This document shows positions 4,815 through 56,360 of a stretch of DNA of 64,000 nucleotides, in pieces (within the stretch, counting starts at the first letter, position 1; every line of letters begins with the position of its first letter). The notes below the pieces were generated by a model. It made no database searches. It saw only the letters and a program-made list of their open reading frames with translations, and had not been told where the DNA came from. The stretch is from contig CAVZWW010000001.1 of assembly GCA_963779225.1 (NCBI GenBank), forward strand, positions 542,921 to 606,920, written 5' to 3'. This DNA is from an uncultured Bacteroidota bacterium (GTDB taxonomy: Bacteria > Bacteroidota > Ignavibacteria > UBA10030 > UBA6906). A program made the translations under genes and the position numbers.

Positions 4815-5633
4815 GTGAATAGGAAATTTCTGGGATTGCTGACCGCACTGCTCAGCGGCGGAATACTATGCGCTCCCGTAGTACTTTCGCTTCATGCCCT
4901 CGACAGCGTCGAACCCACGCCCGGTTCGATCGTTCTGGCCGATGAAGAGGAATTGACATATGAAGTCACCTGGTCGTTCGTCACGCTGGGTATCGTTCGC
5001 GTGAAAGCGAAACCGGACCTTACCGTTCAGGCATGGATTGACTCCTACGAGGGTCTGCCCTACGTGGATTTGCACTCCATCTACTACTCCAGGATGGATT
5101 CGTCCCTGTATTCGTCCAGTTCCTGGTCTCTGGACAAACAGGAAGACGGAGAGTGGACCGGACTAAACTATATCTATGATCCGCCCAGCAGGCGTCTCGC
5201 CATTGAGGAGGTTCGTCAGAAGGACCCCCACAGCGCGCCGCATCTTCGCAAAATGCGGGATACGCTTGTGTTGACCGAGCCATCGTTTCTGGATGGGATC
5301 TCCATCGCGTTCTTTCCACGAACGCTGGTTCACACCGCCCGGTCTGTCGGCGTGCCAACGGTCCTTCGTGAAAAGCTTGGCATCACGACGTTCTACCTTC
5401 CGGGAGAACGCACAACGGTGGACCTGGATGCCGTGGACTATCCCGTGCGCGCGATTGAGATGGAGGGTACCACAACGGTGGTGGGCGTATTCGGAATGAC
5501 CGGGGATTTCAAAGGATGGTTCAGTGACGACGCATATGCAGTTCCGCTGAAAGGCAAGCTGAAAGTGCTGCTCGGATCGGTCACCATGGAACTTGTGAAG
5601 TGGAAGCGTGGATCGTGGAACCCGCCTCAATGA
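4815..5633 (+). CDS. Hypothetical secreted protein (possibly DUF3108-like)
   Basis: GTG start; N-terminal signal peptide LGLLTALLSGGILCAPVVLSLHA; no catalytic motifs recognised. Confidence 0.35.
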   Translation: MNRKFLGLLTALLSGGILCAPVVLSLHALDSVEPTPGSIVLADEEELTYEVTWSFVTLGIVRVKAKPDLTVQAWIDSYEGLPYVDLHSIYYSRMDSSLYSSSSWSLDKQEDGEWTGLNYIYDPPSRRLAIEEVRQKDPHSAPHLRKMRDTLVLTEPSFLDGISIAFFPRTLVHTARSVGVPTVLREKLGITTFYLPGERTTVDLDAVDYPVRAIEMEGTTTVVGVFGMTGDFKGWFSDDAYAVPLKGKLKVLLGSVTMELVKWKRGSWNPPQ

Positions 5634-5725
5634 CGAAGAAACGGAGTCATGCGCGCGTCAGTGGTGGTCCAGGGGCACCTCACAGTACGATGACGGCGCC
5701 CGGGGCCATCGTAGCCGGCGAAGGG

Positions 5726-7087
5726 ATGAGCGAAAAGAAGCGTATCGCCCTGACTTCGGTCTTTGCTGCAATCTTCATCACGGGGCTCAAACTGGTGGTC
5801 GGCCTGGAGACGAACAGTCTGGGGTTACTCTCCGAGGCGGCACATTCGGGCCTGGATTTTCTGGCCGCGCTCATGACGTATGTTGCGGTTCGGGTCGCCG
5901 ACCGCCCCCCCGACCGGGAACATCAGTACGGGCACGGAAAAATTGAAAACCTCTCGGCTTTCCTTGAGACGCTCCTCCTGTTCATCACCTGCGCCTGGAT
6001 TATCTGGGAGGCGGTCCATCGTCTGGTGACGAAAAGCGCACACGTCGAATCCAGCATCTGGAGTTTTGTCGTCATCGCCATTGCTATCGTTGTGGACATC
6101 AGCCGTTCCCGGGCGCTGTCCCGCGTTGCCAAGAAGTACCGGAGTCAGGCTCTGGAAGCGGATGCCCTGCACTTTTCCAGCGATGTCTGGAGTTCACTCG
6201 TCGTACTGATGGGATTGGTCTGTGTGGCGTTCGGGTATGACTGGGTAGATGCTGTGGCGGCGATCGGAGTGGCTCTTCTGGTCCTCTTTGTGAGTTATCG
6301 CCTTGGACGCCGGACGATCGACGCGTTGATGGACAGGGTTCCCGAGGGGTTGTACGAACAGGTGCTCGAGGCTGTCCGTGGAGTGGACGGCGTTGCGGAG
6401 GTGCGCAGCATCCGCCTCAGGCCGTCAGGGGCCAAGGTGTTCGTGGATACCACCATTGCCATCCGGCGGACCACGCCCTTCCAGCTCGCACATACGATCA
6501 TGGATGACGTGGAACAGGCTATTCACGTTCACTATCGCGACATGGATGTGGTGGTCCATGCCGAACCGTATGAGAGCGACGATGAGACGATTGCCGACAA
6601 GATCCGCATGATCGTCATCGGCAGAGGGCTGCCTCCACCCCACAACCTGGAGGTGCATAATGCGGACGGCCGGTATCACGTGGAGTTTGATGTCGAGTAC
6701 GTGGAGGGGAAGAGCCTTGTCGAGGCGCATGACGTCGCCGACGAAATCGAGCGTGACATCCGCGCCGGACTTGCCTCTGTGGACAACGTGACCATCCACA
6801 TGGAAGAGAGCGGTTCCGATGAAAATCGGGTCAATGCCTCCGCGGGTGACGAGAACCTCCGGTCCGACATCACGGCCTTTGTCCGGAAAGATAAGCGGAT
6901 TGTGGATTGCACGAGTGTCCGGCTCTTCCATATCGGTGACCGGTACAATCTTTCCATCAACTGCTCGTTTGACCGTTCACTCACTCTTGAGGAAGTGCAT
7001 CGTGTTATTTCCCAGCTGGAGACGAAGTTGTACGACCATTTTGCGCATCTCCGGCGGGTGACCATTCACGCCGAGCCCTCGTCGTAG
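5726..7087 (+). CDS. Cation diffusion facilitator (CDF) metal efflux transporter with three tandem C-terminal cytoplasmic domains
   Basis: TM1-TM2 region LTSVFAAIFITGLKLVVGLETNSLGLLSEAAHSGLDFLAALMTYVAVRVADRPPDREHQYGHGKIENLSAF carries the CDF signature. It is followed by three CTD-like repeats, each ending …V(V/T)IH(A/M)EP (HVHYRDMDVVVHAEP; VDNVTIHMEESG; LRRVTIHAEP). Start chosen at MSEKKR (5726); the track ORF begins at 5600. Confidence 0.7.
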   Translation: MSEKKRIALTSVFAAIFITGLKLVVGLETNSLGLLSEAAHSGLDFLAALMTYVAVRVADRPPDREHQYGHGKIENLSAFLETLLLFITCAWIIWEAVHRLVTKSAHVESSIWSFVVIAIAIVVDISRSRALSRVAKKYRSQALEADALHFSSDVWSSLVVLMGLVCVAFGYDWVDAVAAIGVALLVLFVSYRLGRRTIDALMDRVPEGLYEQVLEAVRGVDGVAEVRSIRLRPSGAKVFVDTTIAIRRTTPFQLAHTIMDDVEQAIHVHYRDMDVVVHAEPYESDDETIADKIRMIVIGRGLPPPHNLEVHNADGRYHVEFDVEYVEGKSLVEAHDVADEIERDIRAGLASVDNVTIHMEESGSDENRVNASAGDENLRSDITAFVRKDKRIVDCTSVRLFHIGDRYNLSINCSFDRSLTLEEVHRVISQLETKLYDHFAHLRRVTIHAEPSS

Positions 7088-7194: not shown

Positions 7195-7209
7195 TGGCAC
7201 ACTGCTTGA
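7195..7209 (+). promoter_or_regulatory. Possible sigma54 (-24/-12) promoter-like element upstream of the cytochrome cluster
   Basis: TGGCAC-actgc-TTGAa against consensus TGGCAC-N5-TTGCA (-12 is GA not GC), 225 nt upstream of the 7435 ATG. A sigma54 activator is encoded elsewhere in the window. Confidence 0.2.
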
Positions 7210-7434
7210 ATGTCTGATGGCATCCAATCAGGATGGCTCATCTCCATCAGAGGTGCAGTCGTGCAGAAACTGTCTCTCCAGGATATCCGTATCCGGCCAA
7301 ACACACCGAGCGGGGAACGAAAAGACCTCCAGCATCGGTTTACATAATAGGGTTAAGCGGCACCCTGACGGCCGGACTTGATTTGATTTCCACGGACTCT
7401 CCACAATACGCCTCATCATCAGCTGGATACTCCG

Positions 7435-7836
7435 ATGACCACCAAGACTCAGATCTCCCTTCTGTTGTCTCTTGCTCTTCTTGCCGGGTGCAAGGATGCA
7501 GGCACCGAGCCGCAATCAGACCCGGTGACTCCACCGCCACCGGGTGCGACGGTTTCGTTTTCCCAGCAGGTGCTGCCCATCCTGACGGCAAAGGGGTGCA
7601 CCGGATGCCATGGTGGTAGCGGTGGGCTGGTTGTCGGCACGGTGGCCGATCTTCTTGCCGGCGGCAACCATGGACCTGCGGTGGTAGCGGGGGACGGGGC
7701 CGGCAGCAACCTGGTGAAGAAACTGATTGCTCCTCCCCCCTTTGGCGAGCGCATGCCTCTGGGCGGTTCGCAATTGCCCGACAGCACAATCACGGTCATA
7801 CGGACATGGATCAATCAGGGGGCGAATAACAACTGA
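7435..7836 (+). CDS. Monoheme c-type cytochrome lipoprotein, PSCyt1 (Planctomycete cytochrome c)-like domain
   Basis: Lipobox LLAGC; single CTGCH heme site followed by the family spacing …GGNHGPAVVAG…LIAPPPFGERMPLGG…VIRTWINQGA. Confidence 0.55.
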   Translation: MTTKTQISLLLSLALLAGCKDAGTEPQSDPVTPPPPGATVSFSQQVLPILTAKGCTGCHGGSGGLVVGTVADLLAGGNHGPAVVAGDGAGSNLVKKLIAPPPFGERMPLGGSQLPDSTITVIRTWINQGANNN

Positions 7837-7986
7837 CCGCTCGTTGTGGAGTTTATCGAGCCGGGAAGGTGAGGGGTAGCCGCAAGGAGTGAAGCGGGAG
7901 TCTCTGCGGGCAGATGAACGGCGTGGTCGTCGTTTGATCTTCCATCAGGATATGCGTATCATCCGGAAAGCCGAGGAAGGTGTAAA

Positions 7987-8457
7987 ATGGGGAAGATTCT
8001 CAAGGTTGGAGGCATAGGCCTCGCCATTTTGCTGATTGCGATACAGTTCTTCAGGCCGGAGCGTTCGAATCCGGCCGTAGATCCCGCAGGTGATATCGCC
8101 GCCCAGATGTCGGTTCCTCCCGCGGTCCGGTCGATACTCGAGCGGTCCTGCTACGATTGTCATTCAACCAAGACGCGATGGCCGTGGTACACCAATGTCG
8201 CTCCGGTTTCATGGCTTGTTGTTCATGATGTGGACGAAGGGCGGGAACACCTCAATTTGTCGGAATGGGGCTCCTACAAACAGGGAAAACGCATATCGCG
8301 GCTGGACATGATGATCAGTGAAGTGGACAAAGGCGAGATGCCTCCGACAACCTACCTTCTCCTGCACGGAGAGGCCGCGCTGACCGAGGCCGACAAGGAT
8401 ATTCTCTGTGCCTGGGCGGAGCAGCTCAGCGACAGTCTTACCGCCGCCGGCAAGTGA
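7987..8457 (+). CDS. Membrane-anchored heme-binding-domain protein (CxxCH; Haem_bd-type)
   Basis: N-terminal TM helix ILKVGGIGLAILLIAIQFF; CYDCHSTKTRWPWYTNVAPVSWLV heme motif; later MPP motif. RBS gaggaagg upstream. Confidence 0.5.
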   Translation: MGKILKVGGIGLAILLIAIQFFRPERSNPAVDPAGDIAAQMSVPPAVRSILERSCYDCHSTKTRWPWYTNVAPVSWLVVHDVDEGREHLNLSEWGSYKQGKRISRLDMMISEVDKGEMPPTTYLLLHGEAALTEADKDILCAWAEQLSDSLTAAGK

Positions 8458-8528
8458 GCCTGACGGTTCAGGGAATAGATCTCCCTGACCGGCCAGCGAG
8501 TGACAATACCAATCACGAGGACAGACGG

Positions 8529-9641
8529 ATGCGAACGAGACAACGTGGCGTGTTCCTGGTGGGAGTGTTGCTCCTTGCCGGCACGTGTGCCTGGTCGCTG
8601 CCCCGCTTCGCGGCACAAACCGGGACCAAATGCCAGTCGTGCCATATCAATCCCTCCGGAGGTTCGATGCGCCAGGCTTTCGGCGCACAATACGGTCGCG
8701 AAGAACTTCCCGTACCGGAGTGGTCGCAGGATTTCGAGGTGGAGGATTTTACCACGCTCCTGACAAACTTTCTCGGCGTCGGAGCGGATTTTCGGACGCT
8801 GTATTATGTGCGTGAGATTCCCGACTCTACTGGAGAGAGCTCACGATCGGAGGACACATTCTGGCAAATGCAGGGAGATCTGTATCTCAATTTCCGTGTC
8901 GCAAAGAAGGTCAATCTCTTCCTCAGGAAGGGTCTGTACAGCGGTTTCGAAGCATTTGGTCTCCTCAATATTCTGCCGGCGAACGGGCATGTGAAAATAG
9001 GCAAGTTTGTTCCCAACTACGGCCTCAAGCTGGATGACCACACGGCGTTTATACGCAAGTATACAGGATTCAGCGCGGAGAGCGGGCGTCCGGAACTGAC
9101 GGGACTCGAAATGGGAGTCTCTCCCGGTCCGGCCAGCATTACCGGGGGGGTGTTCAATGCTGAGGACGGGTTTGGCGGAGGCTCCAGCCAGAAAGCGTTT
9201 CTGGGGCGAGCGGAGGGGATCTTCGCTCTCGGCCAGAAGGTGTTTCTCGGCGCCGGAGCGGACATCTTTCATAAAGGAAATGACGACGGCTCAACGCAGA
9301 CCCTTTACGGGGGTTTTGCGTCGTTCGGTGCCGGACAGTTCACGCTCCTTGGCGAAGGGGACTACATCAATGAGAAGCAATCCGGAGTGACCAGCACCGG
9401 TCTGGTGATTTTCGCCGAGGCGTCATATACGGTAACACCCGGGGTGGATCTGAAGGCGTCGTACGACTTCTATGATCCGGATACGGACTACAAAACCGGC
9501 TCTTCCACGCGATACAGCTTCGGATTCGAGTTTTTCCCCATTGCCGGAGTTGAAATACGACCGATGTACCGCATCCTCGTGGAAGAACCGACCAATGCAA
9601 AGAACAATGAATTTCACTTTCTGTTCCACATCTACCTGTGA
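8529..9641 (+). CDS. Cyc2-like fused monoheme cytochrome-porin (outer-membrane beta-barrel with N-terminal CxxCH)
   Basis: Signal peptide MRTRQRGVFLVGVLLLAGTCAWSLPRFAAQ, then CQSCH within about 10 aa of the mature N-terminus, then roughly 330 aa of alternating-hydrophobic beta-strand-like sequence ending YSFGFEFFPIAGVEIRPMYRIL…FHFLFHIYL. RBS gagga. The track ORF starts at 8454 and overlaps the upstream gene. Confidence 0.45.
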   Translation: MRTRQRGVFLVGVLLLAGTCAWSLPRFAAQTGTKCQSCHINPSGGSMRQAFGAQYGREELPVPEWSQDFEVEDFTTLLTNFLGVGADFRTLYYVREIPDSTGESSRSEDTFWQMQGDLYLNFRVAKKVNLFLRKGLYSGFEAFGLLNILPANGHVKIGKFVPNYGLKLDDHTAFIRKYTGFSAESGRPELTGLEMGVSPGPASITGGVFNAEDGFGGGSSQKAFLGRAEGIFALGQKVFLGAGADIFHKGNDDGSTQTLYGGFASFGAGQFTLLGEGDYINEKQSGVTSTGLVIFAEASYTVTPGVDLKASYDFYDPDTDYKTGSSTRYSFGFEFFPIAGVEIRPMYRILVEEPTNAKNNEFHFLFHIYL

Positions 9642-9649
9642 GTCATCAA

Positions 9650-10081
9650 ATGAAGAAAGCGTACGTGATGGTGGTGTTGATCGGTGTGATCCCGTTACTC
9701 CTGAGCGTGACATTCCCCCGCACCGGCGCCCAGGACACGCCTGTTTCCCGGGACACCGCAGTCTCTTACAAGGAACAGGTTACACCGATACTTCAGAAGT
9801 ATTGTCTGCCCTGCCATGCGGAGGAGAGTAATAATCCGAGTGAACTCTCTCTGGATTCCTATGCCCTGTTGAAGAAGGGGGGGAAACACGGGGCGTCGTT
9901 CATAGAAGGCAAACCGGAGGAGAGTCTCCTGGTACAGAAGCTTGCCGATGCTCCGCCGTTCGGAGACAGGATGCCTATGCAGTCACGGCGCAAGAAGACG
10001 CAGACCCCTCCCAGGACGTTGACGGAAGAAGAAGTGAAGGTGCTTGAGGTGTGGATCGTGCAGGGGGGGAAGGACAACTGA
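9650..10081 (+). CDS. Secreted monoheme c-type cytochrome, PSCyt1-like domain (paralog of 7435)
   Basis: Signal peptide MKKAYVMVVLIGVIPLLLSVTFP; CLPCH followed by …LLKKGGKHGASFIEGKPEESLLVQKLADAPPFGDRMPM…VLEVWIVQGG. Confidence 0.55.
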   Translation: MKKAYVMVVLIGVIPLLLSVTFPRTGAQDTPVSRDTAVSYKEQVTPILQKYCLPCHAEESNNPSELSLDSYALLKKGGKHGASFIEGKPEESLLVQKLADAPPFGDRMPMQSRRKKTQTPPRTLTEEEVKVLEVWIVQGGKDN

Positions 10082-22145: not shown

Positions 22146-25100
22146 ATGAAGAGGCATTACCTCGTCGCTGCATTTCTCATTTTCATATCGGCGTCTCCGG
22201 CGTGGACGCAGACACCGCTCCAGCCGGTTGTCCCGAAAAGTCAACGGGGACGCAACGATGCCGAACGCTCGGGGACACATGATGCAGGGAATATCCGGAC
22301 GGTGTTCTACAACTACGGGATGGTGGGGGACTATCCCGCGGATCCCATCAATGTCGATCTGTCGATTTTTCATTCAGCGGAAGTCCCCAAGGGATCCGGG
22401 GAAAACTATACGGATGGTATTACGCCGTTCGTGCTGGCGAAGATTAAGGATGTGCATGGAACGGATAACTATATCATGGAAACGGGGTTTCGTGAACGTC
22501 AGGAACAGAGTCCTCTCACATCCAAGATTATGCGTTTCGAACCGCGCCCCGGTTATCTCCAGAGCGACCCGACAATCAATGTCGGCAGATCAATCGCTAT
22601 GAGTCATGACTCCCGGACGTGGCCGCCCGCCTGGCCGGACAAAGCAAATGATCCGGACGACCCGGGCTGGGCGGGCAGCTGGAATGGATATTTCGGGAAG
22701 CGTCCCAATGCTGACCAGGAAAGCTACTCTGTGATGGACGATGATTTTTATGATAAATGGGACTACTATCCGGACAACCGGGATCAGACACGCCGGGGTC
22801 TCGGGCTTCGTGTGGAAGTCCGCGGATTTCAGTGGGCCAACCCGCAATCGACCAACGTCATCTTCTGGCACTATGACATCACTAACGAAGCAACGACAGA
22901 CTACCCTGACAATATCATCTTCGGTCTCTATATGGATTCCGGCGTTGGCGGTTCGGCATTTTCGTGCGACGGGGTTGCGGAATCGGATGATGACAACGCC
23001 TATTTTGATCATTCAACAGGGCTGAATCTGGTATACACGTGGGACAAGTTCGGGCACGGTGTTGATCTCCGGAGCAATTGCTCGGCAACAGGCTATCTCG
23101 GATATGCGTATATGGAAACGCCCGGCAATCCCTACAATGGCATCGATGATGATGGTGATGGAATTACCGACGAACGGCGGGATAGTGGCCCCGGACAGCT
23201 GGTTGTAGGGCAGGACAACATCCGCATCTACGTTCTCGCGCACTATGATCTTGCAAAATTCGAATCGTTCTACGGGAAACTGGATACCAGGCCGGCATTC
23301 AAAGCCGGAAGATGGTGGACCGGCGACGAAAACCAGAATTGGGTTGCCGACTATGATGATCTCGGTGCTGATGGTGTGCAAAACACGTATGACACCGGCG
23401 AAGGGGATGGCATCCCGACAGCAGGAGAACCGGATTTCGATCAGACGGACAAAGATGAATCAGATCAGATCGGATTGACCGCGTTCAAGATGAATCGCAT
23501 CAAAGGTCCGTCAAAGGCTGACCCGGTGGATGATATTGTATTCTTCGGCTTGTGGCCGCCCGCCCTTTACCAGCAGTTCACCTCGCCCGTTCCTTCGTCA
23601 CGGTTTGACTCCGCCGTCGTCCTGAACTACAACATCGCCTTCTTGTTTGCATCCGGGACCTTCAAGTTGCCGGCGGGGGCGCATGAGAGATTCAGTCTTG
23701 CCCTGGCCTACGGGGCCGACTTGAATGAGCTCCGGGAACGGGTACGTACAGTTCAGCAAATCTACAATGCCAACTACCAGTTTGCTGTGCCTCCTCCGGC
23801 TCCTCTGGTCAAAGCCGAGTCGGGCGACGGTTTTGTACGGCTTTCGTGGAGCGATTATTCCGAGCGGGCAAGTGACCCCGTCACTCATGAAAACGACTTT
23901 GAAGGATACAAGATTTATCGTTCCACCGATGTTGACTTCCGCGATCCGAAAACAATCTCCAATGCCCGCGGGACCGGACCCTTTGGCAACGGTAAACCCA
24001 TGGCGCAGTTCGATCTGAAGAATGGCATACAAGGGTATTCGAAGCAGCTGATAGACGGCGTCGCGTATTATCTTGGCGACGATACCAACCTCATGCATGC
24101 CTACATCGATACCACCGTGAAGAACGGACAGGAATACTTCTACGCAGTCTGTTCGTTCGATCACGGTTCGGATTCTCTGGGATTCTTCCCGTCGGAGAAT
24201 GCCATTGCGGTCTCACGCACACTGCGGGGTGGCATCATCCTTCCGGTTAATGTTGTGGACACAAGGCCCGAACCGAACGTGCCGGGATTCGTGCCAGCGA
24301 CGGCATCGAACATATACCACAGGGCGGGTGGGGGGAGCGGTTCTGTTACATTGAATATTGTGGATTCCCGCCAGGTTCCTGATGGCCAGACGTATCTTCT
24401 CCGTTTCACGACCGATACACCGAGCCAGATCCATGCAGTGAGATATGCAATGGTGGATAGTACAACGGGGAAAGAAGTCTTTGGTGCGGGAACTGACTTC
24501 CATGGCGAGGGGCGCGGACCCGTTGGTCTTGGAATGCTGCCTGTCGTCGCCACGACGGATGTCACGATGCCGGATACCACGTACACGGGATTTACTGCCA
24601 CCTCCGTCACGAACATGCGATTTGCTGTGGCCAACAAAGACGCCGACTCAATCAATGTGCTCCGGCCCGGATACCCGAATGATTTCACGATTACCTTTTC
24701 GAGCGGCGTTCTTGACACGAGTCTTCTTTCCATTGTCAGCGATGCCATTCCTGTGAAATTCCGGATCGAAGCCTCGACGGCAAGCGGTCCGATGCGGTTG
24801 CGGTTGTATTTCCATGATGCCAATGACGACAGCACCATGAGTACACTCGGCGACTTCATCGATGTTGTTACGTATGTCCCAGGGAGCACGCGTCCGCGCG
24901 TGACGTGGCGTATAACGGTGGATACCGCCGGTCAAGCAGCCCGCGGCAACATTGTGCCTCCCACAACGGGAGATATCTACTCCGTGCGCCTCCTCATCCC
25001 GTACGGTAGTGAGGATGTGTTTACCTTCCGGACAACGGCACAGACGGTCTCCGGCGACAAAGGGCGGCAGCAGTATGGCTCCGGCCCGTACGTCGTGCCA

Positions 25101-25388
25101 AATCCGTATGCCGGAGCGGCGAGTTTCGAGGCGGAACGGTTCGCTGTGACCGGCCGCGGGGAGCGTCGTCTTGAATTCCGCAATCTGCCGGTTGGCGCCA
25201 GCGTTCGAATATTTACGGTGCGTGGCGATCTGGTGCAGTCACTTCATCAAGACGGATCCACGGTGGGTATGGTTCCCTGGAATCTGAGGACCAAAGACAA
25301 CCTGGACGTTGCGCCGGGTCTCTACGTCTATCATGTCGAGGCGCCGGGATTCGACTCCTTCGTTGGCAAGTTTGCGATCATCAAATAG
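22146..25388 (+). CDS. Large secreted protein with Asp-rich Ca-binding (thrombospondin-type-3-like) repeats, probable T9SS cargo
   Basis: Signal peptide MKRHYLVAAFLIFISASPAWTQ; DDDGDGITDERRD and DYDDLGADGVQNTYDTGEGDGIPTAGEPDFDQTDKDESDQ motifs; C-terminal …GLYVYHVEAPGFDSFVGKFAIIK resembles a T9SS CTD. Confidence 0.4.
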   Translation: MKRHYLVAAFLIFISASPAWTQTPLQPVVPKSQRGRNDAERSGTHDAGNIRTVFYNYGMVGDYPADPINVDLSIFHSAEVPKGSGENYTDGITPFVLAKIKDVHGTDNYIMETGFRERQEQSPLTSKIMRFEPRPGYLQSDPTINVGRSIAMSHDSRTWPPAWPDKANDPDDPGWAGSWNGYFGKRPNADQESYSVMDDDFYDKWDYYPDNRDQTRRGLGLRVEVRGFQWANPQSTNVIFWHYDITNEATTDYPDNIIFGLYMDSGVGGSAFSCDGVAESDDDNAYFDHSTGLNLVYTWDKFGHGVDLRSNCSATGYLGYAYMETPGNPYNGIDDDGDGITDERRDSGPGQLVVGQDNIRIYVLAHYDLAKFESFYGKLDTRPAFKAGRWWTGDENQNWVADYDDLGADGVQNTYDTGEGDGIPTAGEPDFDQTDKDESDQIGLTAFKMNRIKGPSKADPVDDIVFFGLWPPALYQQFTSPVPSSRFDSAVVLNYNIAFLFASGTFKLPAGAHERFSLALAYGADLNELRERVRTVQQIYNANYQFAVPPPAPLVKAESGDGFVRLSWSDYSERASDPVTHENDFEGYKIYRSTDVDFRDPKTISNARGTGPFGNGKPMAQFDLKNGIQGYSKQLIDGVAYYLGDDTNLMHAYIDTTVKNGQEYFYAVCSFDHGSDSLGFFPSENAIAVSRTLRGGIILPVNVVDTRPEPNVPGFVPATASNIYHRAGGGSGSVTLNIVDSRQVPDGQTYLLRFTTDTPSQIHAVRYAMVDSTTGKEVFGAGTDFHGEGRGPVGLGMLPVVATTDVTMPDTTYTGFTATSVTNMRFAVANKDADSINVLRPGYPNDFTITFSSGVLDTSLLSIVSDAIPVKFRIEASTASGPMRLRLYFHDANDDSTMSTLGDFIDVVTYVPGSTRPRVTWRITVDTAGQAARGNIVPPTTGDIYSVRLLIPYGSEDVFTFRTTAQTVSGDKGRQQYGSGPYVVPNPYAGAASFEAERFAVTGRGERRLEFRNLPVGASVRIFTVRGDLVQSLHQDGSTVGMVPWNLRTKDNLDVAPGLYVYHVEAPGFDSFVGKFAIIK

Positions 25389-25403
25389 CCGGGGACGTTT
25401 TCC

Positions 25404-26459
25404 ATGAACGGCATCAGTCATTCACCGGGCTCCGTCTCTCGCGCCATTCTGCCGGCGGGCTGCGTCCTCGCGATTCTTGCACTCCTGTTGCCTGCGGGTG
25501 TGATGATCGGACAGTCGAAGACGGGAACCACCATCGGACAATTCACACTGATCGAACCGAGTGCACGCACTGCGGCGATGGGAGGGGCCGGGGGCGCCTT
25601 TGCGGAAGAAGCCTTCGCGGGCTACTACAACCCCGGAGCCATCGGCGCTTTCGATCATTCGGATTTTCAGGTTTCGTACAACAGCTGGTTCGCCGGCATT
25701 TCTCTCAGCTACGCCGCCGGTGTGTTCCATCTCGGCGACCTCGGCACCGCGACCCTGGCGTTGACCAGTCTCAGCTCGGGCGAGATACCGGTCACCACGG
25801 TCGAACAGCCTCTTGGCACAGGCGAACACTACACAGTCGATAACCTCCTCCTCGGCATCGGCTACGGCTTCAGGATCACTGACCGATTCTCCTGTGGACT
25901 TCAGGTGAACTACATCACCGAACGGATCTGGCACAGTTCAGCAACGACCTTCGGGTTTAATGTGGGAACGCTGTACCAGCTCTCATCGGATGGCCTTCGC
26001 ATTGGTGCAAGTCTCATGAATTTCGGCTTTCAATCACATTTCGATGGAACTGACCTGCGTGTCAGGTACGATCTGGACCCCACGCGCTACGGAGACAATA
26101 GCAGTCTCCCCTCCGCGATTCTCACCGACGACTTCTCACTGCCGTTTGTGTTTCGTGTGAGCCTCGGGTACCCTCTGATGATCGATGGATCCAATACTGT
26201 CACATTTGCCGTCGATGCACTTCATCCAAGCGACAATTCGGAATGCGTCAACCTGGGCCTCGAGTGGCAATTCATGAGGGTGCTCTCACTTCGTGCAGGA
26301 TACAATGGTCTCTTTCAGACGGACAACCAATATGGTCTCACTGCAGGAGGTGGTGTTGCGTGGGATGGACTTGGATATCTTCTGCACGTTGACTACGGTT
26401 GGACAGAACAAAAGTACCTGGGTAGCGTTCATCGGCTAACGCTCGGGGTGGGATTGTGA
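25404..26459 (+). CDS. PorV/PorQ-family outer-membrane beta-barrel (T9SS-associated)
   Basis: Signal peptide, then GQFTLIEPSARTAAMGGAGGAFAEEAFAGYYNPGAI matching the family N-terminal motif (…SARAxAMGGAxxA…xxWNPAG); about 350 aa. Confidence 0.5.
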   Translation: MNGISHSPGSVSRAILPAGCVLAILALLLPAGVMIGQSKTGTTIGQFTLIEPSARTAAMGGAGGAFAEEAFAGYYNPGAIGAFDHSDFQVSYNSWFAGISLSYAAGVFHLGDLGTATLALTSLSSGEIPVTTVEQPLGTGEHYTVDNLLLGIGYGFRITDRFSCGLQVNYITERIWHSSATTFGFNVGTLYQLSSDGLRIGASLMNFGFQSHFDGTDLRVRYDLDPTRYGDNSSLPSAILTDDFSLPFVFRVSLGYPLMIDGSNTVTFAVDALHPSDNSECVNLGLEWQFMRVLSLRAGYNGLFQTDNQYGLTAGGGVAWDGLGYLLHVDYGWTEQKYLGSVHRLTLGVGL

Positions 26460-50488: not shown

Positions 50489-51351
50489 TGAGATCGCTTG
50501 CGCTGCTGTTCATGGCTGTTTTTCAGCAGGGGGCCGATCCGGACCGGGTCAGCCTGCGCAGCGGTGATATCCCCGGATTGGATGTCACTCAGACGCAACG
50601 TTATGAAGGCGTGTCGCTGACGGGGCATATCAACGGCGGCGCCGAGCTGTACCGCGAGTACGGGTTTCGAACGCTCACGGTGCAGGAAGTAACTATTCGC
50701 GGCGGCGAAGAACTCACGATCGAATCGTACCGGATGACCGATCCGGCGGCGGCATTCGGCATTTTTTCGATCTCCCGTTCCGGCTGCGGGCCGGCCGACA
50801 CCGCATTCCTGGCGAGCTGCGGTTCGCCGTTTCAACTTCAGCTGGTGGCACACGACCTGTATGTGCGGATTCAAAACGGCAGCGGAACACCGGTCATGCA
50901 GGAGTCCAGCCGTATTCTTGCGCGCTGGATCGTTGGTCGCGCCGGACAGGATCTTCCCGTGTTGCCGCCCCGGTTCACCCACCCTCTTCTCCTGCCGTTT
51001 GTCCCCGGGGTTAAACGCATGGCAGGTCCTCTCGGCCTCCAGAACGGACTTCCGGACTGGGCTGAACCCTGCGAGGGTTTGCGGGCTTTTTCGGTGTTTG
51101 CGCTGCCGGCAGTCTTCGAAGGGCGGGAACTGTCGGTCCTGGTCTGGCGGTTTGGATCACCGGAGGATTGCGGGGTATTCCTGGGACGGATCGGGGCAGA
51201 GGAGCAGGGGGCAGATTTGATGGCGATACGGCGGGGAGGTGGGACCCTCTGGGTGAAACGTCAGGGTCCGGTGGAGTGCATCCTTGTGGAAACTGGTGAG
51301 GGAGGCCTTGAACCCGCGCTGCGGGAGGTTATCTTCGGACCGGAAAAGTAA
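50485..51351 (+). CDS. Hypothetical secreted protein translationally coupled to DUF362
   Basis: ATGA overlap with the upstream stop; N-terminal hydrophobic signal MMRSLALLFMAVFQQG; no known motifs. Confidence 0.35.
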   Translation: MMRSLALLFMAVFQQGADPDRVSLRSGDIPGLDVTQTQRYEGVSLTGHINGGAELYREYGFRTLTVQEVTIRGGEELTIESYRMTDPAAAFGIFSISRSGCGPADTAFLASCGSPFQLQLVAHDLYVRIQNGSGTPVMQESSRILARWIVGRAGQDLPVLPPRFTHPLLLPFVPGVKRMAGPLGLQNGLPDWAEPCEGLRAFSVFALPAVFEGRELSVLVWRFGSPEDCGVFLGRIGAEEQGADLMAIRRGGGTLWVKRQGPVECILVETGEGGLEPALREVIFGPEK

Positions 51352-52711
51352 TACCGTACTGTTTCATTTTGGCGAACAGCTGCCGGCGATGGATCTTGAG
51401 GAGTTCCGCGGCCCGGCTCCGGTTCCCGCCTGTTTGCTGCAATGCCCGAAGGATCAACTGTTTTTCCACGTCCTCGACGATGCCCTTCATCGGCATCCCC
51501 TCCTGCCAGAGAATGTTGCGCGGCAGCAGATCCCCCCCGGTGCGCAGCGTGAGAGGCAGACTGTCAAGCGTGATGACCTCCCCTCTGGCCATGACAATGG
51601 CGCGTTGAACAACATTCTCCAGTTCACGGACATTTCCCGGCCAGGAGTATTCCCGGAATTTCTGCATCACTTCATGGGATACCACCACCATCCGCCCGGG
51701 GGCATATTTGTACAGGAAGTGATCGACGAACACCGGGATATCTTCCGGATGCTCCCGAAGCGGCGGAACGTTGATATGAAGGATATTGAGCCGGTAGTAG
51801 AGATCTTCCCGGAAACGCCCTGCCCGTACTTCTCCTTCAAGGTCCTTGTTTGTTGCGGCTATCACGCGTACATCCACGACCAGAGTTGTCTTCCCGCCGA
51901 CCCGTTCCAGGGTCTTCTGCTGGAGGACCCGCAGGAGCTTGACCTGGAGGGAGGGGGTCATGGCATTCACTTCATCCAGAAACAATGTGCCCCCATCGGC
52001 CAATTCAAAACGGCCCTGCCGTTGTCCTACGGCTCCGGTGAAGGCGCCCCGCTCGTGTCCGAACATCTCGCTCTCCAGGAGAGTCTCGGGTAACGCACCA
52101 CAGTTGACTTTGATGAAGGGCCGGTCCTGGCGGAGGGAGTGGCGCTGCAGTGCATCGGCTATCAATTCCTTGCCCGTTCCGCTCTCCCCCTGGATGAGCA
52201 CCGTGGTGTCCGTCGGTGCCACCCGTCCGATGAGCTTGAAAATCTCTTGCATCTGACCGCTGCTGCCGATGATGCTCTTGTCCGGTGCTTCCTGGTTCTT
52301 CTGTGTGACCTGTGACCGCAGTTGTCTGACTTCCCCGAGCAGATCGTGGTACTGCAGGGAGCGGCGGATGATGAGCAGGAATTCGTCGAGTTCAAAAGGT
52401 TTCTCCAGATAATCATATGCCCCCGCCTTCATCGCTTCAATGGCGCGTTCGCTGGTGCCGTACGCCGTAAAGACGATCACCACTGTATCGGGGATTGACC
52501 GTTTGATTTCGCGCAACGCGGCGAGCCCGTCGAGTCCCGGGAGATTAATGTCCATCAGGACTACGGCGGGACGATGGTTCCGGGTAAGAGCCACTGCTGT
52601 CTCGCCGTCAGCCGCTTCGAGCATCGTGTATCCCTCCTCCCGAAGGAGCTCGAGGAGACTCTTGCGCATCGAAGGTTCATCGTCGGCAATAAGGATGGTA
52701 TGATGGTTCAT
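51329..52711 (-). CDS. Sigma54-dependent response regulator (NtrC family: REC-AAA+-HTH)
   Basis: REC domain ILIADDEPSMRKSL…; AAA+ sigma54-interaction domain GESGTGKELIADALQ, GAFTGA, ESEMFGHERGAF; C-terminal Fis-type HTH RSRAAELLKIHRRQLFAKMKQYGI. Confidence 0.9.
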   Translation of the reverse strand: MNHHTILIADDEPSMRKSLLELLREEGYTMLEAADGETAVALTRNHRPAVVLMDINLPGLDGLAALREIKRSIPDTVVIVFTAYGTSERAIEAMKAGAYDYLEKPFELDEFLLIIRRSLQYHDLLGEVRQLRSQVTQKNQEAPDKSIIGSSGQMQEIFKLIGRVAPTDTTVLIQGESGTGKELIADALQRHSLRQDRPFIKVNCGALPETLLESEMFGHERGAFTGAVGQRQGRFELADGGTLFLDEVNAMTPSLQVKLLRVLQQKTLERVGGKTTLVVDVRVIAATNKDLEGEVRAGRFREDLYYRLNILHINVPPLREHPEDIPVFVDHFLYKYAPGRMVVVSHEVMQKFREYSWPGNVRELENVVQRAIVMARGEVITLDSLPLTLRTGGDLLPRNILWQEGMPMKGIVEDVEKQLILRALQQTGGNRSRAAELLKIHRRQLFAKMKQYGITFPVRR

Positions 52712-54258
52712 GATGTACCGCGCATTTCCGGACCGATGGTGGGGATGTGAATGTGGCAGACTGTCCCCCGGCCGTCACGCGGGAGGAACTCTATTCTGCC
52801 GCCGTGTGTGCGGATAATTTCGTATGAAATGGAAAGTCCGAGACCTGCTCCGTGGGCTTTCGTGGAAAAGAACGGCTCGAAGATCCGGGGAAGTACTTCC
52901 GGTGGAATCCCGGTCCCGTCGTCCTCGATGGAAACGACCACCAGCTGGCGCTCCGCCTCAAATGCCGTGGCCACGGCAAGATGACCGCCCCCCGGCATCG
53001 CATCCAGCGCATTGGTGCAGATATTCAAGAAAACCTGTTCCATTGCCTGGGGATCCAGCGGGATGAGGGGTGCTTCAGGGGCGAAGGCGGTTTGCACGCG
53101 CACGCGTCGTGCCCGCGCCACGGGCTCCACAACCGTCAGTGTCCGCCGGAGAACGTGATGGACATCGGAGGGAATGGGGATGGTCGCTACCGGTTTTGAG
53201 AACGTCAGGAGCCGCTTCACGAGTTCCGACAGGCGGTCGATCTCGCCCACCACCACGGCCATGGCGTCCTCTGATACGACACTGCCTTTGTCTGCGGTGC
53301 CGGGTCTCTTGAGTTTCCGTTGCCACATCTGGATACGGGTCTTGATGACCGCCAGGGGGGTTTTTACTTCATGAGCCACACGCGCGATCAGTTTGCCGAG
53401 CGAGGCCATCTTGTCCTGCTGGTGGAGCTCCTGCTCAAGCTGTTCCCGTAAGTGTTGGTCTTCAGTCCGTGCCGCAACCATGTCATTGATTGCCAGCATG
53501 ATTACGCCGAAGACTCCACGCCGCTGCGGGAAGCGAAATGCCGTGTCTCGTCGCAGCGCGTCCAGACCGATGCGTATTTCTTCTGTCCGCTCCCGCAATC
53601 TCCAAGCAATCGCAATGACCACAATGAACCCGATAAGCGAAACAATAGCAGCGACAATGAGGACGCTCGTCAACCGCACGGTGGGGAGCAGACGTTCGAT
53701 GTGCACCCGTGCCCAGACGGCTCCCACGATCCGGCCACGAACCTCGATCGGGTCCGTCACCAGCGGAAAGGTGGCAGGATCAAACTGATGCATCTGAATG
53801 ATCTTTTGCTGCCGGGCGATCGACTGCCGTACCTGTTCGCGAATGATGTGAAAAGAGCGTGGAGGGGGACCGAAAGCCGGCTGGGGCGGGGGTGATGTGG
53901 GGAAGGCGTATCCGAGAAACTGATCCGCGTCGGCAATGTAAAATCCACCCTCCGTCCCCTGAAACAACATCAGTTCCCGGGTGGCAACGGCGGACAGCAG
54001 GGCATCCGCCCGCTTCTCCTCTTCCCGCGTCCAGGAGGTTCGCTGCAGGAATGTTGAGTGCCACAGACTGTCCATGAGTGCCCGTGCAGCCGTGTTGATT
54101 TCCGCCACCGCCGCTTCCGTCATGATCCGGTTGGAGGCAATCACTTCGTCAGCGGAACGCTGCAGCGTGGCATAGAAATAGACGGCGCACCCTGCAATAA
54201 CGACGGCAAATGCGGATGCCAGCATGAGCGCCTTGAATCGAAGACTGAGACGGTGCAT
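52708..54258 (-). CDS. Membrane sensor histidine kinase
   Basis: Two TM helices flanking a periplasmic region of about 230 aa; H-box ARVAHEVKTPLAVIKT; N/G boxes (ICTNALDAM, DDGTGIPPEVLPRIFEPFFSTK…GLGLSIS). Start 54258 chosen at MHRLSLRF. Confidence 0.8.
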   Translation of the reverse strand: MHRLSLRFKALMLASAFAVVIAGCAVYFYATLQRSADEVIASNRIMTEAAVAEINTAARALMDSLWHSTFLQRTSWTREEEKRADALLSAVATRELMLFQGTEGGFYIADADQFLGYAFPTSPPPQPAFGPPPRSFHIIREQVRQSIARQQKIIQMHQFDPATFPLVTDPIEVRGRIVGAVWARVHIERLLPTVRLTSVLIVAAIVSLIGFIVVIAIAWRLRERTEEIRIGLDALRRDTAFRFPQRRGVFGVIMLAINDMVAARTEDQHLREQLEQELHQQDKMASLGKLIARVAHEVKTPLAVIKTRIQMWQRKLKRPGTADKGSVVSEDAMAVVVGEIDRLSELVKRLLTFSKPVATIPIPSDVHHVLRRTLTVVEPVARARRVRVQTAFAPEAPLIPLDPQAMEQVFLNICTNALDAMPGGGHLAVATAFEAERQLVVVSIEDDGTGIPPEVLPRIFEPFFSTKAHGAGLGLSISYEIIRTHGGRIEFLPRDGRGTVCHIHIPTIGPEMRGTS

Positions 54259-54416
54259 GATGTAAGATACGGTGGGAGAGAGGACTAGTGCAAGTGGGCG
54301 GTGTTCGAAGAGCAACCTCAGTGAGGCAGCAGGGCGTGCGGATGCTGCACAGGCCCGGTGTTGTAAATGGAACATGATGCGCGTATATTTGTCTACACAT
54401 TGACGGGGCACATTGC

Positions 54417-56291
54417 ATGCAGGCGCTTCCTGAGATCGTCAGGTTCTTAAGCGGCATTGAACTGTTCACGGATCTGGAAGAGAACGAACAGAGTCAGCTG
54501 GCGGGTCTTGTACACGAACAGCACCTGCCGGCCGGGGCACTGGTCTTCGCGGAAAACACTCCCCGGCAGGGTCTGATCCTGATTCAGACCGGGGAGATCG
54601 AACTCTTCAAGCGGACGCCGTTCGGCGAAGAAAAACGTCTGGCCTACTTCCGCCAGGGAGATTTTCTCGGCGAAGGGGCACTGATGGATGAGGATCCTCA
54701 TTCCACATCGGCACGGGCACTCCATCCCGCAGTCATCCTTCTGATCAGCAGCGGGGACTTCTCGGCCCTGGCGCGCCGTAGCCCCACCCTTGGTGCGAAG
54801 GTGCTCTCCCGCATCGCCCGCGTCATCGTCCGGCGCATGCGCTCGACCACATCCAGAGTGATTGACGAAACCGCACAATATGTTTCCGGCCGGACTCGCA
54901 GGGAGCATGACCTCCTCGGTGACCGTGACGTGCCCCACGAGTTTTATTACGGCATACAAACACTCCGGGCAATCGAAAACTTTCCTATCAGCGGCATCAC
55001 GCTGGAGCTCTATCCGGCGCTGATTGCCGGGCTGGCGATCGTGAAAATGGCCGCAGCGCGCGCCAATGTGGATCTCGGGCTGATCACACCACCTGTCGGA
55101 GACGCCATCGGCAGGGCGTGCGGTGAAATCCTCCAGGGAAAGCTGCACAACCAGTTCGTGGTGGATATGATTCAGGGGGGAGCCGGGACTTCCACCAACA
55201 TGAATGCCAATGAAGTCATTGCCAACCGGGCGCTCGAATTGCTGGGGCACGAGAGAGGGGAGTACCGGTTCTGCCACCCGAACAATGACGTCAACTGCTC
55301 GCAGTCCACGAACGACGCCTATCCCACGGCATTGAAGATTGCGATTATCATGAGTAACGGGAAGCTCATTGAAGGACTCGAACAATTGATCGACTCGTTC
55401 CGTGTCAAGGCCCGGGAGTTTGCCCATGTCATAAAGATGGGGCGGACCCAGCTGCAGGATGCCGTGCCGATGACGCTGGGCCAGAGTTTTGAGGCGTATG
55501 CCGCAACCCTTGCCGAAGAAGTGGAACGGCTTGAACAGAACGCACGGCTCTTCCTCGAGGTTAATCTGGGCGGAACGGCGATCGGCACCGGCATTAACGC
55601 CGATCCTCTCTACAGCGAAAAGGCGGTCGGGCACCTGCGGTCGATTTCCGGGTTGGACGTGGTGCTCGCCCCGAACCTGGTGGAGGCGACGCAGGACACA
55701 GGCGCATTCGTCATCTATTCTTCGGCAGTGAAACGACTCGCGGTAAAGCTCTCGAAGATTTGCAACGACCTCAGGCTGCTTTCCTCCGGACCGCGTGCCG
55801 GTCTTTTTGAGATCAACCTTCCACCGATGCAGCCCGGTTCCTCCATCATGCCCGGGAAAGTCAACCCTGTTATCCCCGAAGTCATCAACCAGATCGCGTT
55901 CAAGGTGATCGGCAATGACCTGACGGTGACACTCGGCGCGGAAGCGGGCCAGCTGGAATTGAACGTGATGGAGCCGGTGATCGCGGAGTGCATATTTGAG
56001 TCGATCGAGATGCTCAAGAACGGCATGGCCACGCTCAAACACCGGTGCATCGACGGGATCACGGCAAACGAGAAACGGTGCCGTCTGATGGTGGAGAGGA
56101 GCATCGGCCTGGTGACGGCCCTGAACCCCGTGCTGGGTTATGAAACATGTACCGCGCTCGCCAGGGATGCGCTGGATCAGGAGAGAAGCGTATATGAGCT
56201 GGTGCTTGAACGCAACCTGCTCACACAGGAGGAGCTGGATCGTCTGATGGCGCCGGAATCCATGATCGCTCCCCAGCGGGCAAAACGCTAG
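54417..56291 (+). CDS. Cyclic-nucleotide-binding (CAP-effector) domain fused to aspartate ammonia-lyase (class II fumarase/aspartase family)
   Basis: Residues about 10-150: cNMP-binding fold with FRQGDFLGEGALMDEDPHSTSARAL (G-E…R-A phosphate-binding cassette). Residues about 165-624: aspartase, with EHDLLGDRDVPHEFYYGIQTLRAIENF, QGGAGTSTNMNANEVIANRALELLG, CSQSTNDAYPTALKIA, and the lyase signature GSSIMPGKVNPV. Confidence 0.8.
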   Translation: MQALPEIVRFLSGIELFTDLEENEQSQLAGLVHEQHLPAGALVFAENTPRQGLILIQTGEIELFKRTPFGEEKRLAYFRQGDFLGEGALMDEDPHSTSARALHPAVILLISSGDFSALARRSPTLGAKVLSRIARVIVRRMRSTTSRVIDETAQYVSGRTRREHDLLGDRDVPHEFYYGIQTLRAIENFPISGITLELYPALIAGLAIVKMAAARANVDLGLITPPVGDAIGRACGEILQGKLHNQFVVDMIQGGAGTSTNMNANEVIANRALELLGHERGEYRFCHPNNDVNCSQSTNDAYPTALKIAIIMSNGKLIEGLEQLIDSFRVKAREFAHVIKMGRTQLQDAVPMTLGQSFEAYAATLAEEVERLEQNARLFLEVNLGGTAIGTGINADPLYSEKAVGHLRSISGLDVVLAPNLVEATQDTGAFVIYSSAVKRLAVKLSKICNDLRLLSSGPRAGLFEINLPPMQPGSSIMPGKVNPVIPEVINQIAFKVIGNDLTVTLGAEAGQLELNVMEPVIAECIFESIEMLKNGMATLKHRCIDGITANEKRCRLMVERSIGLVTALNPVLGYETCTALARDALDQERSVYELVLERNLLTQEELDRLMAPESMIAPQRAKR

Positions 56292-56360
56292 AGCTGTTCC
56301 AGCCGGATCGGTGAATACCGGATAGATAACGAAACCTTGTACACGTACAGAAGGTTGAAG

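Follow-up and report, generated by a model that had tools for sequence, protein, structure and literature searches.

A putative outer-membrane cytochrome-porin from a sister clade of Cyc2 and its cytochrome partners in an uncultured Ignavibacteria genome

A 64,000-nucleotide stretch of the genome of an uncultured Bacteroidota bacterium (Ignavibacteria, UBA6906; assembly GCA_963779225.1, contig CAVZWW010000001.1, positions 542,921 to 606,920), referred to here as the window, carries at 7435-10081 four consecutive genes on the forward strand, each of which encodes exactly one CxxCH heme-binding motif. All four open reading frames (ORFs), designated g1 (7435-7836), g2 (7987-8457), g3 (8529-9641), and g4 (9638 or 9650-10081), were found where an original prediction, made from the DNA alone, had placed a tandem of single-CxxCH genes. 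Since no other ORF of at least 80 aa in the 64-kb window bears a CxxCH, their occurrence in a row is not a matter of chance. The third gene, g3, encodes a 370-aa protein that appears to be a fused monoheme cytochrome-porin belonging to a sister clade of Cyc2, the main marker gene by which microbial iron oxidation is inferred from metagenomes. For comparison we used the locus of the closest public relative as the reference for collinearity (L003/L203), an Ignavibacteriota metagenome-assembled genome (MAG) whose g3 protein is 91% identical and whose DNA shows 80-88% identity across an aligned 10 kb, together with a synteny sample of 80 g3-related loci from GTDB species genomes, 1.05 Mb in total.

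The g3 protein begins with a signal peptide (8529-8597, + strand), the cleavage of which was placed by eye after AWS, that is, between MRTRQRGVFLVGVLLLAGTCAWS and LPRF. Its N-terminal motif, SLPRFAAQTGTKCQSCHINPSGGSMR, ends at 8672, and CQSCH (8631-8645, residues 35-39) is the only CxxCH in the protein. The anticipated beta-barrel was recovered by structure modelling as a 16-strand porin (8772-9635), the top match of which among solved structures is OprP. No family in Pfam or NCBIfam is reached by g3 at cutoff (Porin_4 scores 18 bits against a threshold of 27, and there is a weak OMP_b-brl match), so that assignment to a known non-redox porin family of Pfam, named beforehand as an outcome that would speak against a Cyc2-like protein, was not obtained; a sequence search of the PDB with g3 likewise returned no match. 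The most conserved motif of the g3 family, PNYGxKxDDH, sits in the long loop that joins strands 5 and 6, as does the conserved KLDDH of g3 (9027-9041). The corresponding loop of general porins constricts the pore, and for this reason the loop is a candidate substrate site. A universal role for Met47 as the sixth heme ligand was rejected, since just 60% of 169 aligned family sequences have it; His367, kept in 96%, and His171, kept in 89%, are better candidates.

According to Keffer et al. (2021; PMC8406198), a Cyc2 protein has a signal peptide, a 16-strand porin, and one CXXCH that is preceded by AXPXFAR[Q/K][T/Y] and followed by PXL. The same authors filtered their tree by PXFAR[Q/K][T/Y] and a length of at least 365 aa, located PXL about four residues past CXXCH, reported most confirmed members to be at least 400 aa long, and likewise modelled Cyc2 on OprP (PMC8406198). 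In g3 a signal peptide is followed by a single CXXCH, the model predicts a 16-stranded OprO/OprP-like porin domain, and the length of 370 aa lies above the FeGenie floor of 365. The g3 N-terminus, SLPRFAAQTGTKCQSCH, has the spacing of AxPxFAR[Q/K][T/Y]-x3-CxxCH without its Arg.

The named references for this family are A. ferrooxidans Cyc2, Mariprofundus Cyc2PV-1, and Leptospirillum Cyt572, within clusters 1-3 of McAllister (2020) and Keffer (2021). To assemble a comparison set, metagenome contigs were scanned for FAR[QK][TY]-gap-CxxCH, which returned more than 100 sequences of the form signal peptide-A-x-P-x-F-A-R-[QK]-[TY]-x3-C-x-x-C-H-x-x-[F/W]-P-x-L-N-x-F-G-x-x-F-K-x-N-G-Y, those complete at both ends being mostly 400-540 aa long. 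A search seeded with motif-positive Cyc2 retrieved only ‘cytochrome C’ (from Gammaproteobacteria or Proteobacteria MAGs) and ‘hypothetical protein’ entries and no named iron oxidiser; the set is therefore defined by motif and not by organism. Both the Pro-to-Cys spacing and the three-residue gap between [T/Y] and Cys are identical in g3 and in the more than 100 motif-defined Cyc2 sequences. Cleavage after AWS would make the heme His of g3 mature residue 16, and the heme ligand in the A. ferrooxidans Cyc2 model is named H16, in a numbering scheme that is not stated. A hidden Markov model (HMM) built from 71 full-length motif-positive sequences, pre-selected at 390-560 aa and hence all longer than g3, gave g3 a score of about 22-24.3 bits, which came essentially from the signal peptide and the heme motif alone. 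Profile-profile alignment (hhalign) of the g3 family with motif-defined Cyc2 gave a probability of 98.9% (E 1.4e-17, 350 columns), and the barrels only, with the cytochrome segments removed, gave 93.4% (E 2.6e-7, 259 columns). As judged by these alignments and the model, g3 is a remote homolog of Cyc2 with the same architecture.

The family to which g3 belongs is large. Its 480 close homologs are all unnamed and all derive from MAGs of the Ignavibacteriota/Bacteroidota type. CxxCH is present in 116 of the 120 homologs listed, the other four being gene calls cut at an internal Met, and it is invariant across the 169 aligned family members; conservation of the heme motif, on which the proposal of a Cyc2-like protein depended, thus holds for every full-length homolog examined. 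A profile search of 1.84 billion cluster representatives identified 2,059 clusters (at 50% identity) at E <= 1e-3, 855 of them at E <= 1e-10. All listed representatives that retain their N-terminus share the motif [A]-x-P-R-[F/Y]-[A/S]-x-[R/Q]-x-G-x-x-C-x-x-C-H-V-N-P-[T/S]-G-G-G-[M/L]-R. Upstream of the heme the family consensus is A-L-P-R-F-A-[A/S/L/V]-[R/Q]-[T/Y], and none of the 134 representatives with a heme motif matches the Cyc2 regular expression. Two cluster representatives are annotated as Nitrospirota and Deltaproteobacteria, and every homolog and cluster member bears the source name ‘hypothetical protein’. By these sequence measures the g3 clade is a cohesive, large, and unnamed sister clade of Cyc2 that lies outside Cyc2 as strictly defined.

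The three genes that accompany g3 each encode a small putative monoheme cytochrome. The product of g1 (7435-7836, + strand) is a predicted 133-aa lipoprotein with lipobox LLAGC, heme motif CTGCH, and the sequence PPFGERMP; it scores 24.5 bits against the PSCyt1 model (PF07635; Pfam gathering cutoff 22) and has an ortholog at the equivalent position in the closest relative. In its N-terminus (7435-7460) the residues that follow the lipobox Cys, CKDAGTE, bear what we take to be a loose likeness to the Bacteroidota lipoprotein surface-export signal; if that likeness holds, g1 might be exposed at the cell surface and not in the periplasm. The product of g2 (7987-8457, + strand), a 156-aa protein with CYDCH, matches Haem_bd (PF14376) at 159.5 bits against a cutoff of 27 (E 5.5e-47) over model positions 2-132 of 133, and its N-terminus consists of one hydrophobic helix without an obvious cleavage site, consistent with a single membrane anchor. 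The product of g4 (9650-10081, + strand) is a 143-aa PSCyt1-type protein with CLPCH and PPFGDRMP, scoring 32.5 bits against the gathering cutoff of 22. Were translation to start at GTG 9638 it would comprise 147 aa; ATG 9650, which agrees with the gene call in the closest relative, is the more likely start. In the PSCyt1 cytochromes the conserved PPFG[E/D]RMP is likely to supply an axial Met.

Gene order in the relatives sets g4 apart from g1 and g2. Of the 68 loci whose flanks are long enough, 64 have one to three PSCyt1-like monoheme cytochrome genes directly 3' of g3. A g1- or g2-type gene is found upstream of g3 in 14 of 67 loci, and g2-type genes occur in 9 of 80. The conserved module consists of g3 and the downstream PSCyt1 cytochrome or cytochromes only, and the wire from the inner membrane through the periplasm to the outer membrane that had been drawn from all four proteins is not conserved, as only g3 and g4-type genes co-occur widely. 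The partners themselves vary: in a clade of about 40% identity (e.g., L056 9130-9756) the first gene 3' of g3 encodes a protein of about 210 aa in which a cytochrome c domain follows an IPT/TIG domain, and two PSCyt1 cytochromes of about 120 aa come after this gene, from which it follows that the set of partner cytochromes differs by clade. No Rfam family or convincing intrinsic terminator was detected within the cluster.

The compact arrangement of the four genes is itself a product of deletion. The window is collinear with L203 save for three missing segments, namely L203 3287-5352, with a lipoprotein gene and a CHRD-repeat gene; L203 5420-5974, with an ORF bearing a type IX secretion system (T9SS) tail; and, between g2 and g3, the 2,987 bp of L203 6948-9934 that hold a sensor kinase and a sigma-54 activator. 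The loss between the upstream cation efflux gene and g1 amounts to about 2.6 kb relative to the closest relative, and a 66-nt remnant of the deleted CHRD-domain gene persists at 7311-7376 (+ strand), 88% identical to L203 5353-5419 inside that gene. The scar of the 2,987-bp deletion is preserved at 8456-8478 (+ strand). There GAGCCTGACGGTTCAGGGAATAG can be aligned with the 3' end of the regulator gene of L003 (EPERFRE and stop), and the g2 stop codon is joined to the last codons of the sigma-54-dependent response regulator; in the closest relative the sensor kinase gene begins in overlap with the stop codon of g2. Because the adjacency of kinase, activator, and g3 is also found in distant relatives, the change represents a loss in the present lineage. 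The four genes do adjoin, as a tight four-gene operon had implied, but their spacing is specific to this lineage: removal of kinase and activator created a secondary junction of g1-g2 with g3-g4.

The deletion junctions fall at 7282-7394 and 8456-8478, and the kinase/activator pair was lost at a short TGA microhomology. About 88 bp of the spacer between g1 and g2 (7844-7931) has no counterpart in the closest relative, where the spacer is 64 bp long as against 150 bp here; 7844-7931 yielded neither a repeat nor a convincing terminator.

The sigma-54-like element that had been noted upstream of the cluster is present at 7195-7210 (+ strand; TGGCACactgcTTGAA), some 225 bp before g1, and it recurs in related loci. 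Relative to the sigma-54 (-24/-12) consensus TGGCAC-N5-TTGC[A/T], with GG at -24 and GC at -12, its -24 half is perfect, and its -12 half reads TTGA, not TTGC, a variant shared by 14 of 21 related sites. Nowhere else in the window does a match with at most one mismatch occur, and the core of the element, TGGCACACTGCTTGA, is identical in the closest relative inside an intergenic region of 82% identity. Across the 80 loci TGGCAC-N5-TTG[CA] occurs 21 times on the strand of g3 and once on the opposite strand, where about two per strand are expected by chance, always upstream of the string of genes that leads to g3 and often directly before the gene of an extracytoplasmic function (ECF) sigma factor. 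In the closest relative, the ortholog of the element at 7195-7210 stands before the gene string lipoprotein-CHRD-g1-g2-kinase-activator-g3-g4. A sigma-54 promoter directly before g3 was considered and rejected, with just five weak matches in the 80 loci.

Regulatory genes accompany g3 in many of its relatives. Among the 58 loci with sufficient upstream flank, a sensor histidine kinase and an NtrC-type sigma-54 activator are encoded upstream of g3 in 15-17, and an ECF sigma factor gene lies immediately upstream of g3 in another 16. The sensor region of the kinase, before its HAMP domain, contains a conserved CxxCH (e.g., STKVCQRCHAVPENY) in L003 (4944-6545, equal to L203 6944-8545) and in 14 further loci, which suggests that the kinase is a c-type-heme redox or ligand sensor feeding the sigma-54 activator. 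A second two-component system in the window (51329-54411, - strand) was examined as the missing cognate pair and set aside as a paralog: its regulator is 44% identical to the deleted activator, and the similarity of its kinase, which lacks a CxxCH, is limited to the catalytic core, at 30%. This pair could in principle cross-activate the orphaned putative sigma-54 promoter at 7195.

Directly upstream of the g3 locus lies a gene for a transporter of the CDF cation efflux family (5600-7087, + strand; Pfam Cation_efflux and ZT_dimer), the protein of which has an extended C-terminus with repeated ZT_dimer matches in three stretches. The remaining genes of the window are of the housekeeping, TonB-receptor, T9SS-substrate, and peptidase kinds. 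Large ORFs of 1,080, 351, and 713 aa at 22146-26459 and 54447-56588 have no Pfam match at E <= 1e-5; those of 1,080 and 351 aa adjoin a TonB-dependent receptor gene and a gene for a protein with a T9SS tail.

Taken together, we propose that g3 is a Cyc2-like outer-membrane conduit that takes electrons most likely from Fe2+ and passes them on to PSCyt1 cytochromes, a reading to which we assign a probability of roughly 0.6. If g3 works as Cyc2 does, a soluble redox species from outside the cell (most likely Fe2+) would enter the 16-strand pore and exchange an electron with the single c-type heme, held covalently on a short N-terminal segment at the periplasmic mouth of the pore. The electron would then move onward to small periplasmic PSCyt1-type monoheme cytochromes, with g4 as the conserved partner, and the relay is probably extended in this lineage by g1, the lipoprotein, and g2, the Haem_bd protein with a membrane anchor. 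In the relatives the locus would be governed by the CxxCH sensor kinase, the sigma-54 activator, and often an ECF sigma factor, acting through the sigma-54-type promoter upstream of the gene string; in the present genome the kinase and activator genes are gone from the locus and the putative promoter upstream of g1 has been kept. Fe(II) oxidation is favoured because all fused cytochrome-porins that have been tested biochemically, namely A. ferrooxidans Cyc2, Cyc2PV-1, and Cyt572, oxidise Fe(II) (PMC8406198).

A number of observations weigh against a Cyc2-like Fe(II) oxidase. Upstream of its heme g3 reads SLPRFAAQT, with PRFAAQT in place of PxFAR[QK][TY] and the Arg missing; downstream it reads CH-INPSGGSMR, with Pro at +3 and no PXL, and where Cyc2 has [F/W]PxL[N/T]xFG the family shows NP[T/S]GGG[M/L]R, PxL and FPxLNxFG being absent. 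BLASTP scores between the g3 clade and Cyc2 have a median of 27 bits (maximum 50) and arise mostly from the N-terminus, about half of those between Cyc2 subclusters (42-65 bits) and to be set against a median of 135 bits within the g3 clade, and the profile similarity of the barrels alone could come in part from features common to all porins. Confidence in the g3 model is low at the N-terminus (pLDDT below 50 over residues 19-116). The window contains no oxidase, bc-type complex, rusticyanin-like protein, or carbon-fixation genes, and within it nothing links the cluster to quinones or an oxidase. Cultured Ignavibacteria have been described as heterotrophs or Fe(III) reducers (PMC8478452, PMC7914226), and the function of divergent Cyc2 homologs is considered uncertain (PMC8406198). 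Finally, with the cognate sigma-54 activator gone from the locus, expression of g3 in this organism is open to question. Of the original assertion that g3 has exactly the architecture of Cyc2, then, the heme-barrel plan and the profile-profile homology stand, whereas the missing Arg, the missing PxL, and the separate, cohesive clade tell against identity with Cyc2.

Tentatively, the PRFAxRxGxxCxxCHVNPxGGGxR proteins could be an unrecognised porin-cytochrome family of the outer membrane, each member with one heme, that stands parallel to Cyc2 and has a function other than the oxidation of Fe(II) for energy. Such a family would combine obligate PSCyt1 partners with a regulatory cascade from c-heme kinase to sigma-54 activator to ECF sigma factor, would comprise at least 2,059 clusters across Ignavibacteriota/Bacteroidota, Nitrospirota, and Deltaproteobacteria, and might serve, for example, in shuttling with humics or soluble metals in heterotrophs. 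All these elements taken jointly, we consider this possible, if short of probable.

A related alternative retains the conduit and gives it another job, in which electrons would travel outward to soluble Fe(III) chelates, humic quinones, or shuttles, or reversibly, in a heterotroph. Heterotrophy and Fe(III) reduction are known from Ignavibacteria, whose MAGs bear both ‘oxidation’ and ‘reduction’ markers (PMC8478452, PMC7914226, PMC13594681); Cyc2 homologs of humic lakes have been proposed as general extracellular electron transfer genes (PMC6344600); fen, peat, soil, and groundwater MAGs are the source of many of the related loci; and the window lacks genes for autotrophy or an oxidase. Against outward transfer, every tested fused cytochrome-porin oxidises Fe(II) (PMC8406198), solid acceptors would be out of reach for a single heme behind a narrow pore, and the g3 locus is free of multiheme cytochromes both in the window and in the 80 relatives. 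We regard it as a serious minority possibility.

That the locus instead handles or oxidises Fe2+ or Mn2+ at the envelope for detoxification, in concert with the adjoining CDF efflux pump, is unlikely. The CDF gene is indeed immediately upstream on the same strand, and in three loci (L001, L007, and L008) it abuts g3 in the order CDF-g3-UvrD with the small cytochromes absent, but only a single close clade, in which g3 is about 60% or more identical, has this linkage; nearly all of the more distant loci, which without exception keep their PSCyt1 partners, have no CDF gene near g3. The close clade also keeps DUF3108, RtcB, and UvrD as flanking genes, which suggests inherited gene order and not shared function. 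An ordinary diffusion porin, with CxxCH serving heme or iron capture or as a structural plug and the neighbouring cytochromes unrelated, would suit the weak Porin_4 and OMP_b-brl hits, the substrate porins among the top structural matches, and the lack of family annotation, but is very improbable given a CxxCH invariant in 169 divergent sequences within a motif homologous to the Cyc2 cytochrome segment, cytochrome genes adjoining g3 in 64 of 68 loci, and associated regulators that include a CxxCH-bearing kinase.

Cyc2 homologs are already known from Ignavibacteriaceae and Bacteroidetes MAGs (PMC6344600), and FeGenie ‘iron oxidation’ hits have been reported from Ignavibacteriales and Ignavibacteriaceae (PMC8478452, PMC13594681), and a related locus belongs to DeMMO3_9, a MAG labelled Bacteroidetes and apparently from the same mine site as that of PMC8478452; the general idea is for that reason not new. 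The novelty first claimed for this combination of genes is reduced to that extent and survives in the synteny and the clade: literature searches returned no match for the delineation of the clade and its motif, the near-obligate PSCyt1 partners, the association with kinase, sigma-54 activator, and ECF sigma factor, or the deletion. The g3 clade has a Cyc2-like architecture, fails the defining motif, and resides in organisms regarded as heterotrophs. Should the clade oxidise Fe(II), the potential to oxidise iron in soils, fens, and groundwater would be much broader than cultured organisms suggest; should it do something else, survey tools that label such genes ‘Cyc2’ over-call iron oxidation, and if it forms a family parallel to Cyc2 with another function, marker-gene surveys would be giving the label ‘iron oxidation’ to some other function that is widespread. 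Handles on function are offered by the conserved association with PSCyt1 cytochromes and by the kinase, sigma-54 activator, and ECF sigma genes of many relatives, and the present genome, from the locus of which kinase and activator have been lost, provides a natural case for comparison.

OprP/OprO and other 16-strand general porins, with about 14% identity to g3, lack an N-terminal segment for covalent heme. PSCyt1 in Pfam is usually an N-terminal module of DUF1549/DUF1553 proteins, and the likeness to such large Planctomycete-type proteins lies in g1 and g4 scoring above the PSCyt1 cutoff and g2 above that of Haem_bd; here, by contrast, the domains occur singly in stand-alone proteins of 130-160 aa syntenic with a porin-cytochrome. 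With Cyc2 itself g3 shares a signal peptide, one CxxCH some 12 residues after the start of the predicted mature protein, an OprP-modelled 16-strand barrel, the P-x-F-A...[T/Y]-x3-C spacing, and full-length profile-profile homology. The g3 clade differs from Cyc2 in having PRFA[A/S/L/V][R/Q]T upstream of the heme, VNP[T/S]GGG[M/L]R in place of xx[F/W]PxLNxFGxxFKxNGY downstream of it, and a shorter length of about 370 aa as against 400-540. A small periplasmic cytochrome gene adjoins that of the porin in cyc2-cyc1 as well (PMC10654088); the partners of g3 are of the PSCyt1 type, not Cyc1 (c4) or rusticyanin, and no oxidase operon adjoins. MtrCAB and MtoAB/PioAB resemble the proposed conduit in that a heme protein in or at an outer-membrane barrel passes electrons across the membrane, but these systems are built from separate polypeptides with a 26-strand barrel and a decaheme wire that reaches solids (PMC8406198), whereas g3 would accomplish the transfer with one polypeptide, 16 strands, and one heme.

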